Shown one piece after another: positions 7,202-34,724 of a DNA stretch of 64,000 nucleotides (position 1 is its first letter; each line of letters opens with the position of its first letter). The DNA is taken from contig CBDBHR010000028.1 in assembly GCA_965205865.1 (NCBI GenBank), positions 448,001 to 512,000 on the forward strand, read 5' to 3'. The translations under genes and the position numbers were made by a program. The stretch is from a bacterium (GTDB lineage Bacteria > SAR324 > NAC60-12). The notes under the pieces were generated by a model, which worked only from the letters and a program-made list of their open reading frames with translations, did no database searches and had not been told where the DNA came from.

Positions 7202-8182
7202 TTATCCCTCTTTATTCAGAAATTCTTGTAAGATCGGCAGCACTTTGGGTACCCGGTGTCGGCTCATAGGGAGAGCGTCTACCTGATCTCCCATAAAAAT
7301 CCGGTAAGACCTGGCCGATTGTTCGAGATGAGAAACATGGGCCAAGTTGATCACATGGGAGCGATGAATCTGTATAAAAGTACTCGCAGGCAATTGTCTG
7401 AGCGCCTCTTTAAGGGAAATACGCACTTCGATCTCTTCCAAAGCCTGGTCCGTTTTTACAAATATGCGGGAATAATGCTCTTCTACACTAATGTGGCTGA
7501 TAGCTCCCGGCTCCAGGGTGTCCGCCCCATTGCTTCCCGGAATCCTGAACGATTGAGGTTCCGACTCGGAGGTTGAAAAAGATCGAGATGCTTGTTGAGA
7601 AGATATAGATTTACTTCTCCCAAGCGTCGCAGTTGCAAATTCACTGTTTCTTTGCTCCAGAAGCCGGTTGATCTGCCTGGCCTGCTCCAGGCTACCTGCC
7701 AGATTCTTCTTGATTTCCATCTGAAACACGACAAAGGCGATAAAAAACCACAGTGGCAGGATTTTCAAAAAAAGCCCCCATGTTCCGATTTCCTCATTGA
7801 CCTTTGCATATTCGGGGTAAACCTGCGGGACCAGCATGCCGCTCACCATGATGAACACCCCATATCCCGCCAGAAAATTGACGAATGTTAAGGGCCATTG
7901 CTGTCCTATCTTCCTTTTTCCTGAATACCGCTTTCCCCTGGAGATGAAAAAAATTGAGACTTCACCTAAAAGCCACTGGCTCCCTCCAAAACTCGCGGCA
8001 ACGATTCCCCAGGAATAAAAGATACTGAAGGAAAAAGAGAAGCTGGGATTGAACTGCAGGACTACCATGAGGACCACCCCAATCAGCAGGGTGACTTTGA
8101 AATTGAGGCGCAAGCGTTTCTGAAAATCGTAAACAAGTATGGGAGTGTCCCAGTACTCACGAAATGCGTTGATGATTGCCAT
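7202..8182 (-). CDS. membrane-anchored LytTR family transcriptional regulator
   Basis: About four hydrophobic N-terminal segments; C-terminal LytTR signature I.HI.VEEHY...SLKE...LP...FIQIHRSHVINL.HV...LPMSR; no receiver domain. Confidence 0.9.
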   Translation of the reverse strand: MAIINAFREYWDTPILVYDFQKRLRLNFKVTLLIGVVLMVVLQFNPSFSFSFSIFYSWGIVAASFGGSQWLLGEVSIFFISRGKRYSGKRKIGQQWPLTFVNFLAGYGVFIMVSGMLVPQVYPEYAKVNEEIGTWGLFLKILPLWFFIAFVVFQMEIKKNLAGSLEQARQINRLLEQRNSEFATATLGRSKSISSQQASRSFSTSESEPQSFRIPGSNGADTLEPGAISHISVEEHYSRIFVKTDQALEEIEVRISLKEALRQLPASTFIQIHRSHVINLAHVSHLEQSARSYRIFMGDQVDALPMSRHRVPKVLPILQEFLNKEG

Positions 8183-8485: not shown

Positions 8486-9166
8486 ATGGCCGTCGTCAAA
8501 TTGAATAACGTACACAAAGGCTATCCTCTGGGAAAGACCCGAGTCATGGCACTACGGGGGGTTTCCCTGGAAGTTGGGGTCGGAGAGTTTCTGGCTATCG
8601 GTGGTCCAAGCGGAAGTGGCAAATCGACGTTATTGAACCTCATCGGCGCCCTCGACCTGCCGGACCGGGGAACGGTTGAAATCGCAGACAGGAATCTGGG
8701 AAATCTGGGAGACGACGAATTGTCGAGACTGCGGGTGCAGCAGCTGGGGTTCATTTTTCAATCATTCAACCTTATTCCCGTACTCACTACTCTGGAGAAC
8801 GTTGAATACCCCCTCCTTCTGGCGCGAACGTCCCATGCCAGAGAACGGGCGTCGGAAGCTTTGTGGCACGTGGGTTTGCAGGATTTTGCCAGACACCGTC
8901 CCAATGAACTTTCCGGAGGACAGCAACAACGCGTCGCTATCGCACGGGCTCTCGTGGGAAAACCTTCTCTTATCCTGGCCGACGAACCAACGGCTAATCT
9001 GGACTCGAAAACCTCGCAGGAAATCATTCATCTGATGTTACGGATCAATGCGGAGGACGGCGTTACTTTTATCTTTGCCACCCACGATTCCCTGATCATG
9101 CGTCATGCCCATCGATTGGTGAGTCTGAAAGACGGGGTAGTGGCGAAAGAAATCAAGAAAAAATAG
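8486..9166 (+). CDS. ABC transporter ATP-binding protein (LolD/MacB-like)
   Basis: [48 protein letters not shown]. Confidence 0.95.
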
Positions 9167-22010: not shown

Positions 22011-24494
22011 ATGAGTACATACCATCCTAGCGAGATTGAGAGGAAGTGGCAGAAAAAATGGGAGGAAGACGGGCTTTATCGGACAACACCGTTTACTTCC
22101 AATCCAAAATTCTACATGCTGACCATGTTGCCTTATCCCTCAGGGGACTTACACATAGGGCACTGGTATGTCATGACTCCTTCTGATGGGATAGCTCGAT
22201 ACAAGCGTATGGAAGGCTATAATGTATTTTTTCCAATGGGTTTTGATGCATTTGGATTACCTGCAGAAAATGCGGCAATTAAGCACAATATTCATCCAAA
22301 AGAGTGGACTTATAAGAATATGGAACGCATGCGCGAGCAACTTCGTTCCATGGGGGCTATGTTTGTCTGGGAGCATGAAGTGGCCTCTTGTGATCCTGAC
22401 TATTACAAATGGAATCAATGGTTCTTTCTCAAATTTTATGAAAACGGGTTGGCTTATCGGGAATATGCACCAGTGGATTTTTGTACGACTTGTAATACAA
22501 CCCTTGCTAGGGAACAGGTAATCGGGGAGCAACGCCTTTGTGAACGTTGTGAAAATCCTGTTGTCAAAAGGGAACTCAATCAATGGAAACTGAAAATCAC
22601 CCAATATAGCGAAGAACTCTTGAATTTTGAGGAGATGGAGTGGCCGGAACCGGTTAAACTTATGCAGACCAAGTGGATTGGCAAAAGTGAAGGTGTTGAA
22701 TTCAGCCTCCAAGTTCCTGGACAAGATGGACAGGCTATTCGTGTCTTTACGACCCGGCCAGATACAGTTTTTGGCATGACATTTTGTGTGCTTGCGCCAG
22801 AGCATCCGTTAATTGAATTCATTACGACGGAAGAACAGAGTCAAGCAATGCGGGACTACAAGGAAATGGCTGTTCGAAAATCGGAAATTGAACGTACTGC
22901 AGAAGGAAAAGAAAAAGACGGAGTTTTTACGGGTACCTATACCATCAATCCGTTAAACCATCAGCGAATCCCAATTTGGGTTGCCGATTATGTGCTCGCA
23001 ACCTATGGGACGGGAGCCATTATGGCAGTTCCTGCCCATGATCAGCGTGATCTTGAATTTGCACGCAAATACCATCTCCCTGTCACAGTGGTCATTCGAC
23101 CGAAAGACACTAGCAAGGCCGTTCCAACCGGCGAGCAAATAAGCGAAGCCTTTGTCAGCAAAGAAGGTACGATCACGGTTAATAGTGGAGAATTTAATGG
23201 CTTGGAATGGCCACTTGGATTTGAAAAAGTAGCTGAATTCATGGAGGTGCAAGGTATAGGGGAACGGAAAGTCAATTTCCGTCTTCATGACTGGCTGGTC
23301 AGCCGGCAGAGGATGTGGGGGACTCCTATTCCGTTTGTGCATTGCTTTGATTGTGGAGCAGTGCCGGTTCCCTATGAAGATCTTCCTGTCACGCTACCCG
23401 ACGATGCCGAATTTAAACCAACAGGTGAGAGTCCGCTCAAATACCATGAAGGGTTTTTGAAAACAACTTGCCCACAATGCGGTACGCTGGCAGAACGGGA
23501 ATCCGATACAATGGACACGTTTTTCTGCTCATCTTGGTATTATTATGCGTATCTTTCACCTTATTGGAAAAAAGGGCAAAAACTGACACGAGACGAATTG
23601 CCTTGGGATAAAAAGCTCGGGGATTATTGGTTGCCTGTGGATCAATACACTGGAGGTATTGAACATGCCACGATGCATCTATTGTATTTTCGCTTCTTTA
23701 CCAAGGCGTTGGCAGATATGGGACTATTGCCATTTCGGGAGCCGACGAAAAGACTTTTCAATCAGGGAATGATTCTAGGAGAGGATCATGAGAAGATGTC
23801 AAAAAGCCGGGGAAATGTGATCAATCCCGACAGTATTGTCCAACAAAATGGAGTCGATGCGGTGCGAGCTTATTTGATGTTTATAGGACCATGGGAGGCC
23901 GGAGGTCCTTGGAACTCGAGAGGAATTGAAGGAATTGTCCGATTCCTCAAGGATGTTTGGAATCTTTCCGCTGCTCAAAATTCGGGGGCTACTGTATTTG
24001 ATGCGGAGGATATCAAATTGCTAAAAAAAACAACTCATCAAACTTTAAAGAAAGTCACCCAAGATTACAATCAATTTAAATTTAACACCGCCATCGCTGC
24101 CCTCATGAGTTTCCGCAACGTCATGAAGGAATTGGAGCAAAGGACATGTGCTACTCCCGTATGGGATCAAGCCTTGGATACTTTGCTTTTGATGCTTGCT
24201 CCCATCACTCCTCATATCGCTGAAGAACTGTGGCAGAAACGGCATGCTGGAGATTCTATCCATCTCCAGCAATGGCCACAATTTGATGAAGAACTTGCCA
24301 AAGAAAAATTTACCACACTTGTCGTGCAAGTAAATGGGAAGTTACGAGATCGATTGGAAATCCCCATGGATTTGGAACAATCTATGGTTGAAGAGAAAGT
24401 GCTCAGTTCTCCCAAAATTCAACCCTACGTGGCTGATCATACTATTCGTAAACTCATTGTAATCAAAAATAAACTTGTCAACATCGTTGTTTAG
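22011..24494 (+). CDS. leuS: leucine--tRNA ligase
   Basis: PYPSGDLHIGH, GFDAFGLPAENAA, FTTRPDT editing domain, KMSKS, VVQVNGKLR. Confidence 0.98.
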   Translation: MSTYHPSEIERKWQKKWEEDGLYRTTPFTSNPKFYMLTMLPYPSGDLHIGHWYVMTPSDGIARYKRMEGYNVFFPMGFDAFGLPAENAAIKHNIHPKEWTYKNMERMREQLRSMGAMFVWEHEVASCDPDYYKWNQWFFLKFYENGLAYREYAPVDFCTTCNTTLAREQVIGEQRLCERCENPVVKRELNQWKLKITQYSEELLNFEEMEWPEPVKLMQTKWIGKSEGVEFSLQVPGQDGQAIRVFTTRPDTVFGMTFCVLAPEHPLIEFITTEEQSQAMRDYKEMAVRKSEIERTAEGKEKDGVFTGTYTINPLNHQRIPIWVADYVLATYGTGAIMAVPAHDQRDLEFARKYHLPVTVVIRPKDTSKAVPTGEQISEAFVSKEGTITVNSGEFNGLEWPLGFEKVAEFMEVQGIGERKVNFRLHDWLVSRQRMWGTPIPFVHCFDCGAVPVPYEDLPVTLPDDAEFKPTGESPLKYHEGFLKTTCPQCGTLAERESDTMDTFFCSSWYYYAYLSPYWKKGQKLTRDELPWDKKLGDYWLPVDQYTGGIEHATMHLLYFRFFTKALADMGLLPFREPTKRLFNQGMILGEDHEKMSKSRGNVINPDSIVQQNGVDAVRAYLMFIGPWEAGGPWNSRGIEGIVRFLKDVWNLSAAQNSGATVFDAEDIKLLKKTTHQTLKKVTQDYNQFKFNTAIAALMSFRNVMKELEQRTCATPVWDQALDTLLLMLAPITPHIAEELWQKRHAGDSIHLQQWPQFDEELAKEKFTTLVVQVNGKLRDRLEIPMDLEQSMVEEKVLSSPKIQPYVADHTIRKLIVIKNKLVNIVV

Positions 24495-24839
24495 TTATTT
24501 CAAATGATCTTGAAATTGAATTGCGCTCCAATGATTAGGACGTTTGAAATATCAAGATTTGGGAAGTTAAGGAAATCAGGGCTTTATGTTTTGTCCCAAA
24601 AATTTAATTTTATATTGCTAAACAGCAATTTATTTGTTACAAATATCGATTAAAAAAATTGTATAATCAATTCAATCGTTGAAAGATTCTTACCTGTTTT
24701 GAGAGAGTTATGCAGGATGTTGTGATCTGGTTCTTCGAACTTCATGGAAACTCAACAGAGAAATTGACCTCAGGATTGAAACCGATTCACGCAGATTAAT
24801 GCTGCGCTATAAAAGACTTCAGGCACGGGAACTTTCAAT

Positions 24840-25208
24840 ATGCCGACATTAAATCAACTGGTTCACAAAGGACGGGCAAATAAGACATCCAAATGCGATA
24901 CACCTGCTCTCCAGGGTTGTCCTCAAAAAAGAGGAGTGTGCATGAGAGTTTATACATCTACTCCAAAAAAACCGAATTCGGCTTTGCGGAAAGTGGCACG
25001 GGTTCGTTTGAGCAACGGGATTGAAGTGACAAGCTACATTCCTGGAATTGGACACAATCTACAGGAACACTCTGTTGTCCTGCTCCGTGGAGGACGGGTC
25101 AAAGATTTACCTGGGGTTCGCTATCACATAATTCGAGGTGCTTTAGACACAGTTGGAGTGTCCGATAGGAAGCAGGGGCGCTCAAAATACGGAACCAAAC
25201 GCAACTGA
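24840..25208 (+). CDS. rpsL: 30S ribosomal protein S12
   Basis: [31 protein letters not shown]. Confidence 0.99.
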
Positions 25209-25224
25209 GAGGTGAGCAAGTAAT

Positions 25225-25698
25225 ATGGCCAGACGGCATGCAGCAGAAAAAAGGGAGGTATTGCGAGATCCCAAATATAAAGATCAACTGGTCGGTAAGT
25301 TTGTCAATTGCCTAATGAAAAGCGGCAACAAAAGCACAGCTGAAAAGATTTTGTATGGTGCGTTTGAAATAATTAAAAAAAGAGAAATGGAAGCCCTACC
25401 CCTCGAAGTTTTTAGAAGTGCCGTTAAAAATGTGTGCCCGGTCTTGGAAGTGAAATCTCGTCGTGTTGGAGGATCCACGTATCAAGTTCCCATTGAAGTG
25501 AGATACGATCGCAGTCAGGCATTGGCAATTCGTTGGTTGATTTCATATGCAAATGGACGCAGTGGTAAATCAATGAGGGGAAAATTAGCTGAAGAATTAC
25601 TTGATGCTTTCCACAACAGAGGATCTTCCGTGAAGAAAAAAGAGGACACTCATAAGATGGCAGACGCGAATAAGGCATTTGCTCATTATCGATGGTAA
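25225..25698 (+). CDS. rpsG: 30S ribosomal protein S7
   Basis: [25 protein letters not shown]. Confidence 0.99.
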
Positions 25699-25720
25699 CT
25701 TCGTTGCGTAGTAGCGTGTT

Positions 25721-27829
25721 TTGATTCACTCAAGATCCAGGCGAAATATTGGGATCATGGCCCATATCGATGCTGGAAAAACAACGACCACTGAACGGAT
25801 TTTGTACTTCACAGGACGGATTCACAAAATTGGAGAAGTTGACGACGGTGCTGCGACGATGGATTGGATGGAAGAAGAACAGGAGCGTGGAATCACCATC
25901 ACATTGGCAGCGACAACTTGTTTTTGGGAGGTGGACAATCAAGATTACGGGATCAATATTATCGATACTCCCGGGCATGTCGATTTTACTTTTGAAGTAG
26001 AGCGTTCCTTACGTGTTTTAGACGGAGTGATTGCAATATTTTGCGGAGTTGCAGGGGTTCAATCCCAATCAGAAACTGTTTGGCAGCAAGCAGATCGCTA
26101 CTTGATTCCACGGATTGCTTTTGTTAATAAAATGGATCGGGTTGGAGCTGATTTTTACAGAGTTCTGTCCATGATGGAGGAGAGACTTGGAGCGAAACCG
26201 GTGGCAATTCAGCTTCCCCTTGGTCAGGAAGACGACTTTCAAGGAGTGTTCGACCTGATCAAGATGAACGCCATTTATTTCGATGAAACGACGTTAAGGA
26301 CAGATTTCGGCATCAAAAATGTTCCCGAAGAGTATCGAGAACAAGTCGCTAAATATCGGGAGCATTTGTTGGAGGTCGTTGCAGAATTGGACGAGCATTT
26401 GATGGAGAAGGTCATAGAAGAAAAAGAGATTGATCCAAAAGAAATTGAGTCTGCTTTATGCCGAGGTACTTTGCAAAATCTAGTGATCCCGGTTTTATGC
26501 GGTTCCTCTTTTAAAAATAAGGGAGTACAGCCACTGTTAGATGCTGTGATCAAGTATTTGCCTTCTCCTTTAGATTTTCCAACAGTGACGGGGATCAATC
26601 CGGAGACGCATAGGAGCATTTCACTGAAAACAGTGGACGAGGAGGCGTTGTGCGCAATTGCTTTCAAGATTGCTTCGGATCCATTTGCCGGTCAATTAAC
26701 CTTTGTGAGAGTCTACTCAGGCATTTTAGAGTCAGGTAAATGGGTATACAATCCACTGAAAAAGAAAAGTGAGCGGATTGGATCGTTGTTGAAGATGCAT
26801 TCCAACAAGCGAGAAGAGGTAAACAAAATTGGTTCTGGGGATATAGGAGCTGTCCTTGGTTTTAATTTCACAACCACCGGGGATACTCTTTGTACAAAAA
26901 AAAAACCGTTACTCTTGGAACAAACCCATTTCCCCGAGCCAGTCATTGATATTGCCATTGAGCCGAAAACCAAAGCAGATCAGGTCAAGTTGGCACAAGC
27001 GCTGGAGAAGCTCACAAGAGAAGATCCTTCTTTCCATTCAAGAATCGAAGAAGAGACAGGTCAGACCTTGATTTCAGGAATGGGTGAGCTTCATTTGGAA
27101 ATTGTTGTAGGACGATTACAAAAGGAATTTCGGGTTGCTTGCAATGTGGGAAACCCCCGGGTGGCTTACCGGGAAACCATTACCACTGAAAAGCGCATCG
27201 AAAGTGAGGTGAATCAGGCGATTGGGGGAAAAGAACAATATGCTTATTGCCATCTGGAGTTAATCCCTTTGGAACCAAGAATGGGTTTCATATTTGAAAG
27301 CAAAGTACAGGGAGCGATTGAGGAGAGATTCATTGCAGCAATTGAACAGGGACTCGAAGAAGCCTTGGAAGGCGGGGTCCTTGCCGGATATCCATTAATC
27401 GATTTGAAAGCGGTGCTGCTTAAAGGAATTGCACTGGAAAATGTATCGACAGAGATGGCTTTCAAAATGGCTGGTTCTTTGGCTTTGAAAGAGGGGGTTC
27501 GGCAAGCCAACCCAGTGATTTTAGAACCCATCATGGAAGTAGAGGTCGTAGTTCCTATAAAATTTATGGGAGATGTCATCAATGACTTGAACGCCCGCAA
27601 GGGCCGTGTACGGGGAATGTCGGAACGTTCCGGTGCACAGGTTGTCTTGGCAGAGGTTCCTTTAGCCGCAATGTTCGGCTATTCCACAGATGTTAGATCG
27701 GCAACCCAAGGGCGTGCCGTATATTCAATGCAATTCAGCCATTATGAACCTGTTGTTAAAAAAATAATTGGGGACATAGCGAGGATATCTCAAAACCTTA
27801 GTATAAAAGAAATCTCAAGAGCTCGTTAA
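25721..27829 (+). CDS. fusA: elongation factor G (divergent domain IV)
   Basis: [36 protein letters not shown]; position between rpsG and tuf; TTG start uncertain. Confidence 0.95.
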
Positions 27830-27847
27830 TCATATTAGGAGAAGAAC

Positions 27848-29047
27848 ATGGCAAAAGAACAATTTAATCGGTCCAAACCACATGTGAATATTGGGACAAT
27901 TGGGCACGTTGATCACGGAAAAACCACGTTGACCGCCGCTATTACAAAGGTTTTGAACATGAAGGGCATGGCAAAAGTGATGGAATTCGGTGAAATTGAT
28001 GCAGCTCCGGAGGAACGGGCTAGAGGAATCACGATTGCAACTGCTCATATAGAATATGAAACAGAAAATCGACATTATGCTCATGTGGATTGTCCAGGAC
28101 ATGCGGATTATGTCAAAAACATGATTACCGGCGCTGCTCAGATGGATGGTGCGGTAATTGTAGTATCTGCTGCCGATGGACCAATGCCTCAAACTCGCGA
28201 ACATATCCTCTTGGCCAGACAGGTGAATGTTCCTTATCTGGTAGTTTATTTGAATAAAGTCGATCAGGTGGATGATGAAGAACTGTTGGAACTGGTTGAA
28301 TTGGAAGTCCGCGAATTATTGAGCTCTTACGAATTTCCCGGAGACGATATTCCAGTGATCAGGGGTTCTGCATTACAAGCTCTGGAATCAGGAAGTACGG
28401 ACCCCACTAGTGGAGATTTCGTGTCTATCTTGGAGTTGATGGATGTAGTCGATAGATACATACCGGAACCGATGCGGGATTTGGATAAAGATTTCTTGAT
28501 GTCTGTTGAAGATGTTTTCACAATTTCTGGTCGAGGTACCGTGGCAACAGGTCGGATTGAACGGGGTATTGTCAAAGTTGGAGAAGAAGTAGAAATTTGC
28601 GGTATTCGAGATACCAAAAAAACCGTAGTCACAGGAGTAGAGATGTTCCGCAAGACCTTGAATGAGGGACAAGCCGGAGACAATGTCGGACTGTTGATTC
28701 GAGGGTTGAAACGCGATGAAGTTGAGCGCGGACAGGTGATTTGCAAGCCAGGAAGTATCACCCCACACACCAAATTTAAGGGGCAGGTTTATGTGCTCAC
28801 TAAAGATGAAGGTGGACGCCATACTCCGTTTTTTACCAACTATCGACCGCAATTTTATTTCCGTACCACAGATGTGACGGGAATGATCTATCTTCCTGAA
28901 AATATTGAAATGGTTATGCCTGGAGACAATGTGGAAATTACGGTAGAATTGATCACACCTATTGCAATGGAAAGGGAACTCCGTTTTGCAATTCGTGAAG
29001 GAGGACGAACTATCGGCTCCGGTGTTGTCACAGAAATTATTGCTTAG
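27848..29047 (+). CDS. tuf: elongation factor Tu
   Basis: [34 protein letters not shown]. Confidence 0.99.
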
Positions 29048-29064
29048 AATAGTTGTGAGGCAGC

Positions 29065-29373
29065 ATGGAGCATAAAATTAAAGTTCGGTTCAAAGCATAC
29101 GACGATAAATTGTTGGATCAAACCGTCGGTGAAATCGCCCATACTGTTAAGAGAACAGGGGCTCAGATTGTTGGACCAATTCCACTGCCTACTCGAATCA
29201 ACAAATACACTGTTTTACGGTCTCCTCATGTCGACAAAAAGTCGCGAGAACAATTTGAAATGAGGACCCATAAACGCTTGCTTTATATACTTGATACCAC
29301 TCCACAGACAATGGATGCGCTCATGAAGCTTGATATTTCTGCAGGGGTGGATATTGCGATCAAACAGGAGTGA
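29065..29373 (+). CDS. rpsJ: 30S ribosomal protein S10
   Basis: [21 protein letters not shown]. Confidence 0.99.
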
Positions 29374-29376
29374 AGC

Positions 29377-29418
29377 ATGGAATATGGTTTGAGAATAGTT
29401 AAATGTGAAGGAAAATAA
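29377..29418 (+). other. 13-codon ORF (MEYGLRIVKCEGK) occupying the usual rplC position
   Basis: AGGAG SD at the rpsJ 3' end, ATG at 29377, TAA overlapping the rplD ATG (TAATG). Confidence 0.45.
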
Positions 29419-30041
29419 TGGCAAAATTTCCGATTTTCCATTTTGACAATACTGCTGTTGGAGAGATTGAATTCAGCGATCAATTGCTGGAAACGCCTTA
29501 TAAACCTCATTTGATCCAAGAGGCTGTTGTGCATTATCTCGCTGGTCAGCGTCAAGGCACTCATGCTACCAAAGCACGATCTCAAGTGTCTGGCAGTACA
29601 AGAAAACCATGGAAACAAAAAGGGACAGGACATGCGCGAACAGGCAGTACTAAATCCCCTATCTGGCGTCAAGGTGGAGTAGTTTTTGGTCCTCATCCGA
29701 GGAGTCATGCCAAATCGATCAACAAAAAAGCGCGCAAACAGGCATTGTGTTCTGCTCTTGCGGAGAAAGTTCGCAATAATCAAATTATCGTCTTGAATCA
29801 CCTACAACTGGAAGACCATAAAACCAAATTGTTTCAAGCAATTCTTGTCAATCTGGAATGTCCGCAAGTTCTTATTGTCGTTGATGAATTGCCACGAAAT
29901 TTACAATTGGCAGCCCGTAATCTTCCTCTGGTTCAAGTCATTAATTATCACACGTTAAACGTATATAAGTTGCTGCGGTACGCAAAAGTGATATTTATCA
30001 AAAATGCACTCAGCGCTGTCGAACAAAGATTATTGTCATGA
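29418..30041 (+). CDS. rplD: 50S ribosomal protein L4
   Basis: RQGTHATK.RSQVSGS.RKPW.QKGTG.AR.GS..SP.WR.GGV.FGP.PR. Confidence 0.98.
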   Translation: MAKFPIFHFDNTAVGEIEFSDQLLETPYKPHLIQEAVVHYLAGQRQGTHATKARSQVSGSTRKPWKQKGTGHARTGSTKSPIWRQGGVVFGPHPRSHAKSINKKARKQALCSALAEKVRNNQIIVLNHLQLEDHKTKLFQAILVNLECPQVLIVVDELPRNLQLAARNLPLVQVINYHTLNVYKLLRYAKVIFIKNALSAVEQRLLS

Positions 30042-30325
30042 ACCTCTACAATGTTATTAAACGACCCCTGCTGACTGAAAAAACGACTTGGCATCATGAA
30101 TTTTCTAACCAAGTCATTTTTCAGGTGCAAAAACATGCTAACAAAGTGCAAATCAAAGAGAGCATTGAAAAAGCTTTTAATGTGACTGTCCTTCAGGTCC
30201 AGACGATTAATGTCAAAGGGAAACCAAAAAAGTTGGGGCGCTATCTGGGAAAACGGTCTGATTGGAAAAAAGCAATCGTGACTTTGAAAGAGGGTGATAA
30301 AATCGAATATTTTGAAGGTGCGTGA
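30038..30325 (+). CDS. rplW: 50S ribosomal protein L23
   Basis: P.LTEK, ANK.QIK, WKKAIVTL. Confidence 0.98.
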   Translation: MNLYNVIKRPLLTEKTTWHHEFSNQVIFQVQKHANKVQIKESIEKAFNVTVLQVQTINVKGKPKKLGRYLGKRSDWKKAIVTLKEGDKIEYFEGA

Positions 30326-30344
30326 CTGCAATAGGTAAAGAATT

Positions 30345-31169
30345 ATGTCGATTAAAAAGTATAAGCCAACCTCGCCAGGCCGACGGGGAATGAGTGGCTT
30401 TGGATTTGAAGAAATCACGACATCGAAACCGGAAAAATTATTGTTGGCGCCTCTAAAAAAAAAGGGGGGGCGTAACAACCACGGACGAATTACAGTTCGT
30501 CATCGTGGAGGTGGCCATAAACGCCGATACCGCATCATTGACTTCAAACGAAACAAGTTTGATATACCTGCAAAGGTGTTAACTATTGAATATGATCCCA
30601 ACCGCAACGCTAGGATATCATTAGTTCGCTACATTGATGGGGAAAAACGTTACATTATCACTCCAGAGGGTTTGAAAGTCGGAGATACAATCATCGCTGG
30701 CACTCAAGCGGAAATCCGAGTTGGAAATACTATGCCGTTGAAAAATATTCCTTTGGGCACCGTTATTCATTGTGTGGAACTCAGGCCACGAAAAGGTGCT
30801 CAGTTGGCGAGGAGTGCTGGTGCTTCCTTACAATTGATGGGAAAAGATATAGACTATGTTCAGTTGAAACTGCGTTCCGGAGAAATTCGAACGGTGCGTG
30901 CAGAATGTTTGGCAACTATCGGCACGGTGGGCAATGCCGAATATATGAATATGAAGCGAGGCAAAGCGGGCCGATGTCGATGGATGGGAATTCGGCCCAC
31001 AGTACGTGGAGTGGTGATGAATCCTGTTGATCATCCGCATGGTGGTGGAGAAGGCCGCACTTCAGGAGGACGGCACCCTGTCAGCCCATGGGGAGTGCCA
31101 ACTAAAGGATATCGAACTCGAAACAATAAAGCCACCGACAAATATATCATCCGGAGACGTAATGCATAA
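30345..31169 (+). CDS. rplB: 50S ribosomal protein L2
   Basis: [33 protein letters not shown]. Confidence 0.99.
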
Positions 31170-31178
31170 GGAGAGTTC

Positions 31179-31457
31179 ATGCCTCGATCTTTGAAAAAAG
31201 AACCTTTTGTTGATAGCCATTTAGAAAAAAAAATTTTCGCTGCCCAAGAAAAGCAAGATCGTAAATTGATCAAAACCTGGTCTCGTCGCTCAATGATCAC
31301 TCCCGACTTTATCGGACTCAATATTGCGGTCCACAACGGTAAGCAATTCATCCCCATCTTTGTTACTGAGGAAATGGTGGGTTACAAATTGGGAGAATTT
31401 GCTCCAACACGTACATACCGCGGACATACCAGTAAAACCGATAAGCGGACACATTGA
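31179..31457 (+). CDS. rpsS: 30S ribosomal protein S19
   Basis: [27 protein letters not shown]. Confidence 0.99.
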
Positions 31458-31466
31458 AAATTAATT

Positions 31467-31805
31467 ATGGAAGCAAGAGCACTAGTCAGAAATGTTCGAA
31501 TAGCTCCGCGAAAAGCGCGTTTGGTGTTGAATTTGATCCGGAGAAAAGATGTCCTCCAAGCTTTAGCCTTTCTTGAAGCAACTCATCGAAAGGCGGTACC
31601 TGTCGTAAAGACACTGCTCAAATCGGCGATTGCAAATGCTGATGAAATTCACCCGCATGTGGATGTCGACAACTTGATTATTATAGCAGCTTATGCAGAT
31701 GAAGGAGCAACTCTGAAACGCTTCAGAGCACGGGCAATGGGACGTGGTGCCCGAATCAACAAACGCACCAGTCATATTACTTTGATTGTTGGAGATACGA
31801 TCTAA
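31467..31805 (+). CDS. rplV: 50S ribosomal protein L22
   Basis: [17 protein letters not shown]...I.KRTSHI. Confidence 0.98.
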
Positions 31806-31828
31806 TTTTCTTGTTTATAGAGGCAATT

Positions 31829-32491
31829 GTGGGTCAAAAAGTTAATCCCATCGGGTTGAGGCTTGGCATAACGCATACTTGGAATTCAAAGTGGTATGCA
31901 GAGAAAAAATATGTGGAACATTTGAAAGAAGATATAGATATTCAAAAATTCGTTAAGAAGCAACTCAAACATGCGGCAATTTCGAAAATAGAAATAGAGC
32001 GTGCTTCACGTAAAACAAAAGTCAATATTTTTTCCGCCAGACCTGGAATCATTATTGGCCGTAAAGGTGATGAAGTAGAAAAGCTCAAGAAGTCACTCGC
32101 TCGACTAACCAAACGAGATATCGTCGTCAACATCAAAGAAGTGAAACGACCTGAAATTGATGCTCAGTTGATTGCGGAGAATGTTGCTATGCAGCTTGAG
32201 CGCCGGGTTGCATATCGAAGAGCAGTCAAAAGGACGATGACTTCAGCCATGCGAATGGACATTGAGGGTTGCAAGATTATGGTGGCCGGTCGTCTCAATG
32301 GCGCTGAAATGGCAAGAAACGAATGGGTCCGAGAAGGAAGGGTTCGTCTCCACACATTACGAGCTGAAATTGATTACGGATTTACTGAAGCACTAACAAA
32401 CTATGGATTAATAGGGGTAAAGGTCTGGGTATGTCGTGGTGAGAATTTTGAAAAACAGCGTAACCGCCGTCCCAGACGAAAGGAACGATAA
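31829..32491 (+). CDS. rpsC: 30S ribosomal protein S3
   Basis: GTG start [30 protein letters not shown]. Confidence 0.98.
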
Positions 32492-32493
32492 GC

Positions 32494-32910
32494 ATGTTGA
32501 TGCCGAAAAAAACGAAGTTTCGAAAAAAAATGAGAGGTAGGCTTGCTGGTGTTGCCAATTCTGGTAATGTGGTCCAGTTCGGATCACTCGGCTTACAAGC
32601 GACGAGCTGTGGATATATCACGGCTCGGCAAATTGAGGCGGCTCGTCGAACAATTACCAGGAAATTGAGGCGAGGAGGGAAAATTTGGATCCGAATTTTT
32701 CCAGATAAGCCGATTACGAATCGACCTGCAGAAACACGAATGGGCAAAGGCAAAGGATCGGTGGAGGCATGGGTCTCTGTAATCAAACCGGGACGTATTT
32801 TGTACGAAGTCGACGGCATCGAACCCGAGATTGCTGAAGACGCGCTACGTTCGGCAGGATTCAAGCTCCCAGTACAAACCCAAATTATGAAACGAGGACT
32901 GATTGCATGA
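32494..32910 (+). CDS. rplP: 50S ribosomal protein L16
   Basis: [25 protein letters not shown]. Confidence 0.99.
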
Positions 32911-33092
32911 AAGTGACTGAGTTGAGGGCATTGTCTACAGAAGAATTGGAAAGCAAGTTACTTGAAATGCAGGAAGAACAACTCCGACGTCGTTGCAATC
33001 AAGTCATTGCTCAGCTTCCAAATGTGAGATTACTGCGTCAAGGACGACGCGATATTGCCCGAGTAAAGACAATCATAAATGAAAAGAAATGA
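32907..33092 (+). CDS. rpmC: 50S ribosomal protein L29
   Basis: [18 protein letters not shown]; canonical position. Confidence 0.95.
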
Positions 33093-33160
33093 GAAAAAAG
33101 GCAGCAATAAGGTAGCAAGATGCGCCCTCCTTTGTGATCATTGATCCAAGAAGTTATTTG

Positions 33161-33412
33161 ATGAATCGAAAAAATAAAAAAGCACGAACAGGAATCGTAG
33201 TCAGTGATCAGATGGAAAAATCTATTGTAGTTCGGATAGATAGGACGGTCAAACATCCCTTTTATAAAAAAACGATAAGACGGTCCAAAAAATACATGGC
33301 ACATGATGAAAACAATGCCTGTAAGATTGGAGATATCGTGCAGATTATTGAATGCAAACCGATCAGCTTCCGGAAAACATGGCGCGTAGTGGAAGTTGTA
33401 AAAACATCTTAG
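33161..33412 (+). CDS. rpsQ: 30S ribosomal protein S17
   Basis: [31 protein letters not shown]. Confidence 0.98.
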
Positions 33413-34184: not shown

Positions 34185-34724
34185 GTGAGTCAGTCACTAG
34201 CGACATATAAAGAAACATTGGTCCCCTCATTGAAGTCACAGTTTGCATTCAAAAACTTTCATCAAGTTCCAACAATTAAAAAAGTAGTCCTCAACATGGG
34301 ATTGGGGGAAGCTATTCAAAATCCTAAGATCATTGAGGCTGCCGTAGATCAATTGAGTCTTATTGCTGGACAGAAAGCGGTGGTGACCCGCGCAAAGAAA
34401 TCCGTTGCGAGTTTCAAACTGCGAGAAGGAATGCAAATTGGTTGTATGGTTTCTTTGCGATCAATACGAATGTGGGATTTTTTAGACCGTTTTTTAACGG
34501 TAGCTCTTCCCCGAGTTCGAGATTTTCGGGGATTGTCCCCAAGAGCATTTGATGGCGCAGGAAACTATACGCTAGGTGTGAGGGAACAACTGATATTTCC
34601 TGAAATCAACTATGACAAAATTGATAAAGTACGCGGCATGAATATCACGATTGTTACGTCGACTTCGTCGAAGGAAGAAGCAAAAGCCTTGATGGAAGGA
34701 TTAGGATTTCCCTTTCGGAAATAA
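34185..34724 (+). CDS. rplE: 50S ribosomal protein L5
   Basis: [27 protein letters not shown]. Confidence 0.99.

Follow-up and report, generated by a model that had tools for sequence, protein, structure and literature searches.

The window, that is, the whole 64,000-nt stretch of DNA that was analysed, corresponds to positions 448001-512000 of contig C28 in G000, an assembly of 30 contigs with 4,743,813 bases and a completeness of 91.88%. All features of the window described here are on the plus strand. It was found that the fusA gene for EF-G (25721..27829; Pfam GTP_EFTU, EFG_III, EFG_IV, and EFG_C) is followed by the tuf gene for EF-Tu (27848..29047; Pfam GTP_EFTU, D2, and D3), which adjoins the rpsJ gene for uS10 (29065..29373; Pfam Ribosomal_S10, E 3.7e-35). 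The stop codon TGA of rpsJ is at 29371-29373, and the next gene is rplD for uL4 (29418..30041; Pfam Ribosomal_L4, E 2.9e-68), followed by rplW for uL23 (30038..30325; Pfam Ribosomal_L23) and rplB for uL2 (30345..31169; assigned by Pfam). The remaining S10/spc row, also identified with Pfam, continues in the canonical order through rplE (34185-34724). From rplD on, the row matches the canonical S10 operon (nine ORFs with Pfam matches, 29418 to 33412), and rplC, the gene for uL3, is the sole absentee. The gap between tuf and rpsJ (29047-29065) is only 17 nt in length; thus, the str row (rpsL-rpsG-fusA-tuf) is contiguous with the S10 row. This gap has no room for an S10-type leader.

Features of the rpsJ-rplD spacer

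The spacer between rpsJ and rplD (29374..29417) is 44 nt in length and has neither rplC nor a predicted structure. A 13-codon ORF, MEYGLRIVKCEGK (29377..29418), starts with an ATG at 29377 and ends with a TAA at 29416-29418, and its stop codon overlaps the rplD start codon (ATG at 29418) by one base in the form of TAATG. An AGGAG sequence (29366..29370) lies within the final codons of rpsJ (K-Q-E-stop), 6 nt upstream of the ATG of this mini-ORF. A Shine-Dalgarno-like AAGGA sequence (29408..29412) lies 5 nt upstream of the rplD ATG, on the Glu and Gly codons of the mini-ORF. Purine-rich sites are present at the equivalent position in the spacers of several relatives, and AAGGA probably works as the Shine-Dalgarno sequence of rplD. 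The first-pass annotation of the window had read the rpsJ end at 29373, the rplD start at 29418, the 44-nt gap, the ORF, AGGAG, and TAATG in the same way, and all of these were confirmed, including the geometry from which it had proposed translational coupling (AGGAG at the end of rpsJ and the overlap with the rplD start). The 6 nt between AGGAG and the ATG are a workable Shine-Dalgarno distance.

In an Rfam scan of the region 24000-31000, which would reveal an L4-responsive leader only if Rfam includes a model of it, nothing was found above the gathering score. The sole sub-threshold row was a miRNA model (E 0.9) outside the spacer, and no Rfam match was found in the rpsJ-rplD spacer itself. 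The folding of the spacer region has a z-score of +0.45, and 135 of 200 shuffled sequences reach an equal or better fold.

uL3 is a universal ribosomal protein. Is it encoded elsewhere in the assembly? It had been noted from the letters that the window has no L3-like ORF, and indeed the Ribosomal_L3 profile (PF00297) has no match in the window or anywhere in the 4.74-Mb assembly, at E<=0.001 or even at E<=10. The same search found matches in 14 of 14 control genomes. A tblastn search of the assembly at E<=100 with the L3 sequence of a same-genus genome gave noise only (best E 0.33). A divergent or hidden L3 gene in the assembly was thus rejected as a candidate, since both searches at these relaxed thresholds returned nothing but noise.

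The gene order without rplC is inherited in the phylum

Is the direct junction of rpsJ and rplD peculiar to this genome? A set of 88 species genomes from the window's phylum, all of one class, was searched with Pfam. L3 was detected in 77, L4 in 82, and S10 in 81 of them, so that uL3, uL4, and uS10 went undetected in 11, 6, and 7 genomes, respectively. Of the 81 genomes having both rpsJ and rplD, 79 have rplD directly behind rpsJ; the remaining two are cut at contig ends. The distance between the edges of the S10 and L4 Pfam hits in those 79 genomes is 57-348 nt, which is too short for a gene of about 620 nt. Matches to both L3 and L4 were detected in 74 genomes; the two are on one contig in seven of these, the nearest pair being 70 kb apart, and rplC lies within 70 kb of rplD in none of the 74. 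No rplC was found inside the S10 operon among the phylum genomes searched.

In 30 relatives belonging to two families of one order, L3 was found in 29 genomes, and the remaining genome is 84% complete. The S10 loci of G000 and 29 relatives were fetched and compared, and the order tuf-rpsJ-rplD-rplW was found in all 30 loci, with rpsJ and rplD directly adjacent throughout. Their rpsJ-rplD spacers are 2-161 nt in length, differ in content, and share no common ORF.

These results clearly indicate that the absence of rplC from the S10 operon is a real, lineage-wide feature. The first-pass annotation had suggested that rplC moved away at this locus. It was right in that rplC left the S10 operon and lies elsewhere, but the move is neither recent nor local, since 79 of the 81 phylum genomes share the junction. 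The order tuf-rpsJ-rplD-rplW and onward is the normal inherited order of the phylum, and rplC left the operon long ago.

Two side observations were made among these loci. In G003 and G014 (loci L029 and L030), two relatives of genus g3, rplD apparently starts 2 nt past the rpsJ stop codon (TGAGCATG), which is the tightest junction in the set. The position of this ATG, apparently the own start codon of rplD, equals that of the mini-ORF ATG in G000 and in G001, a closed genome of the same genus as the window. In G006, an assembly of 12 Mb in 750 contigs, three weak additional matches to the L4 family (E 9e-12 to 1e-6) are found at C681:713-3692, beside a normal rplD gene. Either a fragmented second copy or contamination may account for them.

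Location of rplC in the relatives

The rplC gene of G001 has 206 codons and lies 2.7 Mb from rplD. It is flanked by a lipid-A-type acyltransferase gene on one side and by an RDD-family gene and then recN on the other side. In ten of ten L3 loci of relatives, S10, L4, L23, and EF-Tu are absent within 1.5 kb of L3. The neighbours in other genera include a carbamoyltransferase gene (three genomes), a YceG gene with an ABC-2 permease gene (two genomes), and a solute-binding protein gene (one genome). Since the neighbours vary by genus, rplC is regarded as a free-standing gene that was repeatedly moved. It survives as a lone gene of about 206 codons. A conserved new neighbourhood of rplC was also considered and rejected; the acyltransferase gene, the RDD gene, and recN of G001 are absent from the other nine L3 loci.

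In several rplC loci, the sequence before the gene is AT-rich with -35/-10-like hexamers, and a hairpin and T runs lie behind the gene, as judged by eye. A promoter scan before the G001 rplC gene found a consensus match (TTGTGA-17-TAAAAT), and the number of matches (2 found and 1.6 expected) is no better than in shuffled sequences. The features seen by eye hint that rplC would most likely have a promoter and a terminator of its own.

The surroundings of the G001 rplC gene are rich in repeats. The region upstream of the acyltransferase-rplC pair (locus L012, 1-6600) is packed with multi-copy elements. Its ORFs of 111-184 aa have dozens of copies, 50-90% identical, on contigs C26, C28, and C29 of G000, and its short repeats of 70-350 nt occur in very many places.

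The probable rplC gene of the window's organism

On contig C3 of G000, there are orthologues of the RDD-family gene and recN, whose products have 79% and 87% protein identity to those of G001, respectively. Orthologues of rplC and the acyltransferase gene were not found in G000, and the sole acyltransferase match is a paralogue with 27% identity. The synteny between G000 and G001 stops exactly behind the RDD gene on C3. The presence of rplC at this syntenic site was rejected, since C3 behind the RDD gene shares only repeats with G001.

The stretch behind the RDD gene (C3:24000-30640; L011 1-6640) is species-specific and has decayed enzyme fragments resembling a thiamine-pyrophosphate enzyme, as read from the translations. 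It also has three ORFs, one SDR-like (short-chain dehydrogenase), one GIY-YIG-like, and one of 449 aa that is ATPase-like, as well as a dispersed repeat (L011 3035-3240) that is about 200 nt in length and has about 40 matches in G001. This stretch may be a real island, or a repeat may have led to a mis-join here.

I examined the contigs of four runs, namely X3 and X4 from one sample and X6 and X7 from two further studies, which hold 85-100% of the sampled words of the window region 28000-31000. Runs X6-X8 hold 85% of the words, and no run recorded as RNA was found to hold this region. In all four runs, one short contig (2176, 967, 2273, or 2316 nt) that aligned to the G001 locus at a likeness of at least 80%, a level at which a contig can also derive from another organism, spans the acyltransferase gene and rplC. 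In the 967-nt record, rplC is incomplete, and the remainder is found on another short record. The short contigs of three runs have 110-114 differences from G001 in 623 nt (about 82% identity) without any gap. The RDD gene and recN are on a separate contig of 5-18 kb, whose divergence from G001 is equal to that of the rplC contig. Both contigs end between rplC and the RDD gene. In the depth comparison of the rplC contig, the two values agree in X7 (23.5 vs 22.7) and differ in X3 (7.58 vs 4.92) and X6 (16.5 vs 6.86). No run contig aligned to about 7856-8012 and about 8663-8860 of the G001 locus, and no inference was drawn from this.

A join of rplC to a contig of G000 was not seen. Judging by the equal divergence from G001 and by the depth, the window's genome is the probable source of the short rplC contig. 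Since all four runs have a matching ungapped rplC gene, either the organism itself or a near-identical strain has rplC in a G001-like neighbourhood. Thus, judging from these contigs, the organism most likely has its own rplC gene, which would lie beside a lipid-A-type acyltransferase gene, as in G001. The absence of L3 from the assembly would then be an omission in assembly or binning; the acyltransferase-rplC contig of 1-2.3 kb, bounded by breaks, is missing from it. Short pieces bounded by breaks are of the kind that assemblers and binners drop.

In summary, I consider it very likely that the locus is explained by four things together, that is, an inherited gene order without rplC, a free-standing rplC gene, a chance ORF in an ordinary spacer, and an rplC contig that was omitted from the assembly.

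Nature of the 13-codon ORF

The spacer and its flanking genes were compared between G000 and G001. The spacer is identical at 28 of 44 nt (64%), and the flanking genes are identical at 82-91%. In rpsJ, 281 of 309 nt are identical, and the differences at codon positions 1, 2, and 3 are 2, 1, and 25. In rplD, 510 of 624 nt are identical, with differences of 23, 12, and 79 at the three positions. The mini-ORF is identical at 27 of 42 nt, with differences of 6, 7, and 2. This pattern is opposite to that of rpsJ and rplD and thus indicates an unconstrained sequence rather than a coding one. In G001, the spacer is also 44 nt in length and has AGGAG and an ATG at the equal place, from which an ORF of 19 codons, MAHDWGLHKFEESQWPSFP, runs to a stop codon five codons into rplD. 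Its peptide is unrelated to MEYGLRIVKCEGK (three of 13 positions identical), and there is no stop codon at the rplD start. Is the mini-ORF conserved beyond this genus? As read from the spacers of the other 28 relatives, no comparable ORF was found, so that G001 is the only one of 29 relatives having one. G004 has an A-rich TAATG start context without an upstream ORF. When the 44-nt spacer was shuffled 20,000 times, an ATG ORF of at least 10 codons appeared in 23% of the shuffled spacers; the proportion was 43% when GTG and TTG were also accepted as start codons.

Thus, the 13-codon ORF is most likely a chance ORF and not a gene, as far as can be judged from sequence comparison. The 44-nt spacer would be an ordinary, fast-evolving spacer that carries AAGGA as the ribosome-binding site of rplD. 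The ORF would be a by-product of the spacer sequence, and its apparent Shine-Dalgarno sequence would be nothing but the last codons of rpsJ.

Might the ORF serve as a relay to rplD? Ribosomes finishing rpsJ would restart at the ATG at 29377, translate the 13 codons, and reach rplD via TAATG, and this coupling would replace that through the lost rplC in this genus. The position of AGGAG, the TAATG overlap, and the conservation in G001 of the ATG (4 nt past the stop codon of rpsJ), AGGAG, and the 44-nt length, together with an ORF extending past the rplD start, are consistent with this, provided that the role is sequence-independent and limited to one genus. However, the AGGAG letters are the Gln and Glu codons of uS10, which has 99% protein identity between G000 and G001, so that the motif is forced by the conserved protein. 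The rplD gene has AAGGA as a site of its own, 5 nt upstream of its start codon, the G001 stop codon no longer overlaps the rplD start, and the other 28 spacers have no such ORF. Besides, such ORFs are frequent among the shuffled spacers, and the two species, being of one genus, do not count as independent cases. A relay function is therefore improbable.

The first-pass annotation had proposed another reading, in which the ORF is an in-frame scar, the N-terminus of L3 joined to its tail after the excision of rplC. There is a loose likeness of the M-x-x-G-L type to the L3 start of G001 (MLNGILGRK), and this is all that speaks for a scar. It was revealed that the same-genus spacer differs at 16 of 44 nt and encodes an unrelated peptide, that no significant similarity is seen between the spacers of relatives and the L3 termini, and that the spacers of the 30 genomes vary in both length (2-161 nt) and content without a common ORF. 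Since the excision is older than the radiation of the phylum, throughout which the junction is found, and the spacer sequences were completely replaced afterwards, the scar was rejected as very improbable.

It is hardly credible that rplC was deleted by an assembly error at 29374-29418, as had been offered as the alternative, or that uL3 was truly lost; such a reading would fit the lack of any L3 match in the assembly, but uL3 is universal, the relatives share the junction (79 of 81 in the phylum, the closed G001 among them), the independent contigs of run X3 hold a fraction of 1.00 of the 324 words sampled from the window region 28000-31000, and an ungapped rplC gene about 82% identical to that of G001 is present in all four runs.

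The junction in a second phylum

The inherited order without rplC is not limited to the window's phylum. In a multi-phylum panel of 80 L3 loci, L4 lies directly behind L3 in 76 loci, and two others end at the locus edge. Only two loci of this panel lack both neighbours, namely L043 from the window's phylum and L090 from a MAG titled 'uncultured Myxococcales bacterium'. The order was not seen in the panel's other phyla; all 21 loci labelled Thermodesulfobacteriota are canonical. For the phylum of L090 (hereafter the second phylum), 81 genomes of at least 90% completeness were drawn evenly (G088-G168). In 72 of 80 genomes, rplD comes directly after rpsJ; thus, the arrangement is common to two phyla. 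Seven genomes have the canonical rpsJ-rplC-rplD spacing. L3 adjoins L4 in eight of 79 genomes, and rplC is apart from rplD in the other 71. G099 has a third arrangement, in which rplC and rplD are adjacent and rpsJ is 1.9 Mb away.

In 16 genomes of the second phylum, the contig starts less than about 1.3 kb before the Pfam match of rplD, just before rpsJ, and there is no room for rplC. This suggests that the assemblies of the second phylum often break in tuf, and a duplication of this gene is the probable reason.

Both phyla have an inherited direct rpsJ-rplD junction with rplC elsewhere. They are, however, separate phyla, and the second one includes a canonical clade of seven genomes, whereas no canonical genome was found in the window's phylum. 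Did the junction arise once or twice? A quick IQ-TREE tree was made from S10, L4, and L23 (399 of 453 columns kept, 83 rows, SH-aLRT support only). All three proteins were available from 141 of 148 loci, and the rows comprise 16 of 30 from the window's phylum (two of its seven families), 40 from the second phylum (the seven canonical genomes and 33 of the 72 derived ones, but not G099), and 27 of the 71 loci available as outgroup. The window's phylum forms one clade with a support of 100. The seven canonical genomes of the second phylum also form one clade (98), which is nested among genomes without the rplC gene at branches of 89-94. The canonical rows labelled Thermodesulfobacteriota lie between the two phyla at branches of 81-89. 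The relation of the two phyla was not settled by this quick tree. In the AU test, a tree with the two phyla as one clade has a log-likelihood lower by 6.75 (p-AU 0.384), and a tree with all 49 rplC-less rows as one clade has a log-likelihood lower by 30.95 (p-AU 0.134); neither was rejected.

It is therefore only tentatively suggested that the rpsJ-rplD junction with a freed rplC gene is a single, very old, and rare genomic change, kept by descent in the window's phylum and in most of the Myxococcales-labelled phylum. A single origin is possible but rather doubtful at present.

Discussion

The arrangement found here is a lineage-specific rearrangement of a ribosomal operon. A break at the head of the S10 operon is also found in cyanobacteria, where it separates rpsJ from rplC and leaves rplC and rplD together. 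Both cases are old, lineage-wide breaks that can mimic an insertion or a deletion when a single genome is viewed. In contrast to cyanobacteria, rpsJ and rplD stay together in the window's phylum, and rplC alone is gone.

The canonical S10 operon, as described in PMC3616713, has 11 genes and an L4-controlled leader. By its title, the same paper reports that most RNAs of this kind are confined to Gammaproteobacteria. The canonical operon is also a subject of PMC13001810. As in the canonical operon, rpsJ comes first in the window and the order from rplD onward is the same. In contrast to it, the window lacks rplC, and rpsJ is joined to the str row right behind tuf. A full-text literature search, whose coverage leaves out most subscription journals, found no paper describing SAR324 or Myxococcota members whose rplC gene lies outside the S10 operon.

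What does this mean for genome surveys? The present case is a caution that a universal ribosomal gene missing from one window may reflect nothing more than an inherited gene order and the loss of a short contig. uL3 serves as a standard marker of completeness and phylogeny. Where its gene stands alone amid variable, repeat-rich sequence, as in this lineage, metagenome bins easily lose it. As for the organisms, uL3 is encoded outside the co-transcribed and co-regulated S10 row in two phyla, and thus its level relative to the other ribosomal proteins must be balanced in some other way.

The biological point is modest, and the wider potential lies only in the possible shared origin of the junction in the two phyla. 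If the single origin is true, the junction would be a gene-order marker uniting two former 'deltaproteobacterial' phyla, and one clade would either have restored the canonical order or have branched off first. The junction would then be usable as a rare-change marker for deep bacterial phylogeny.
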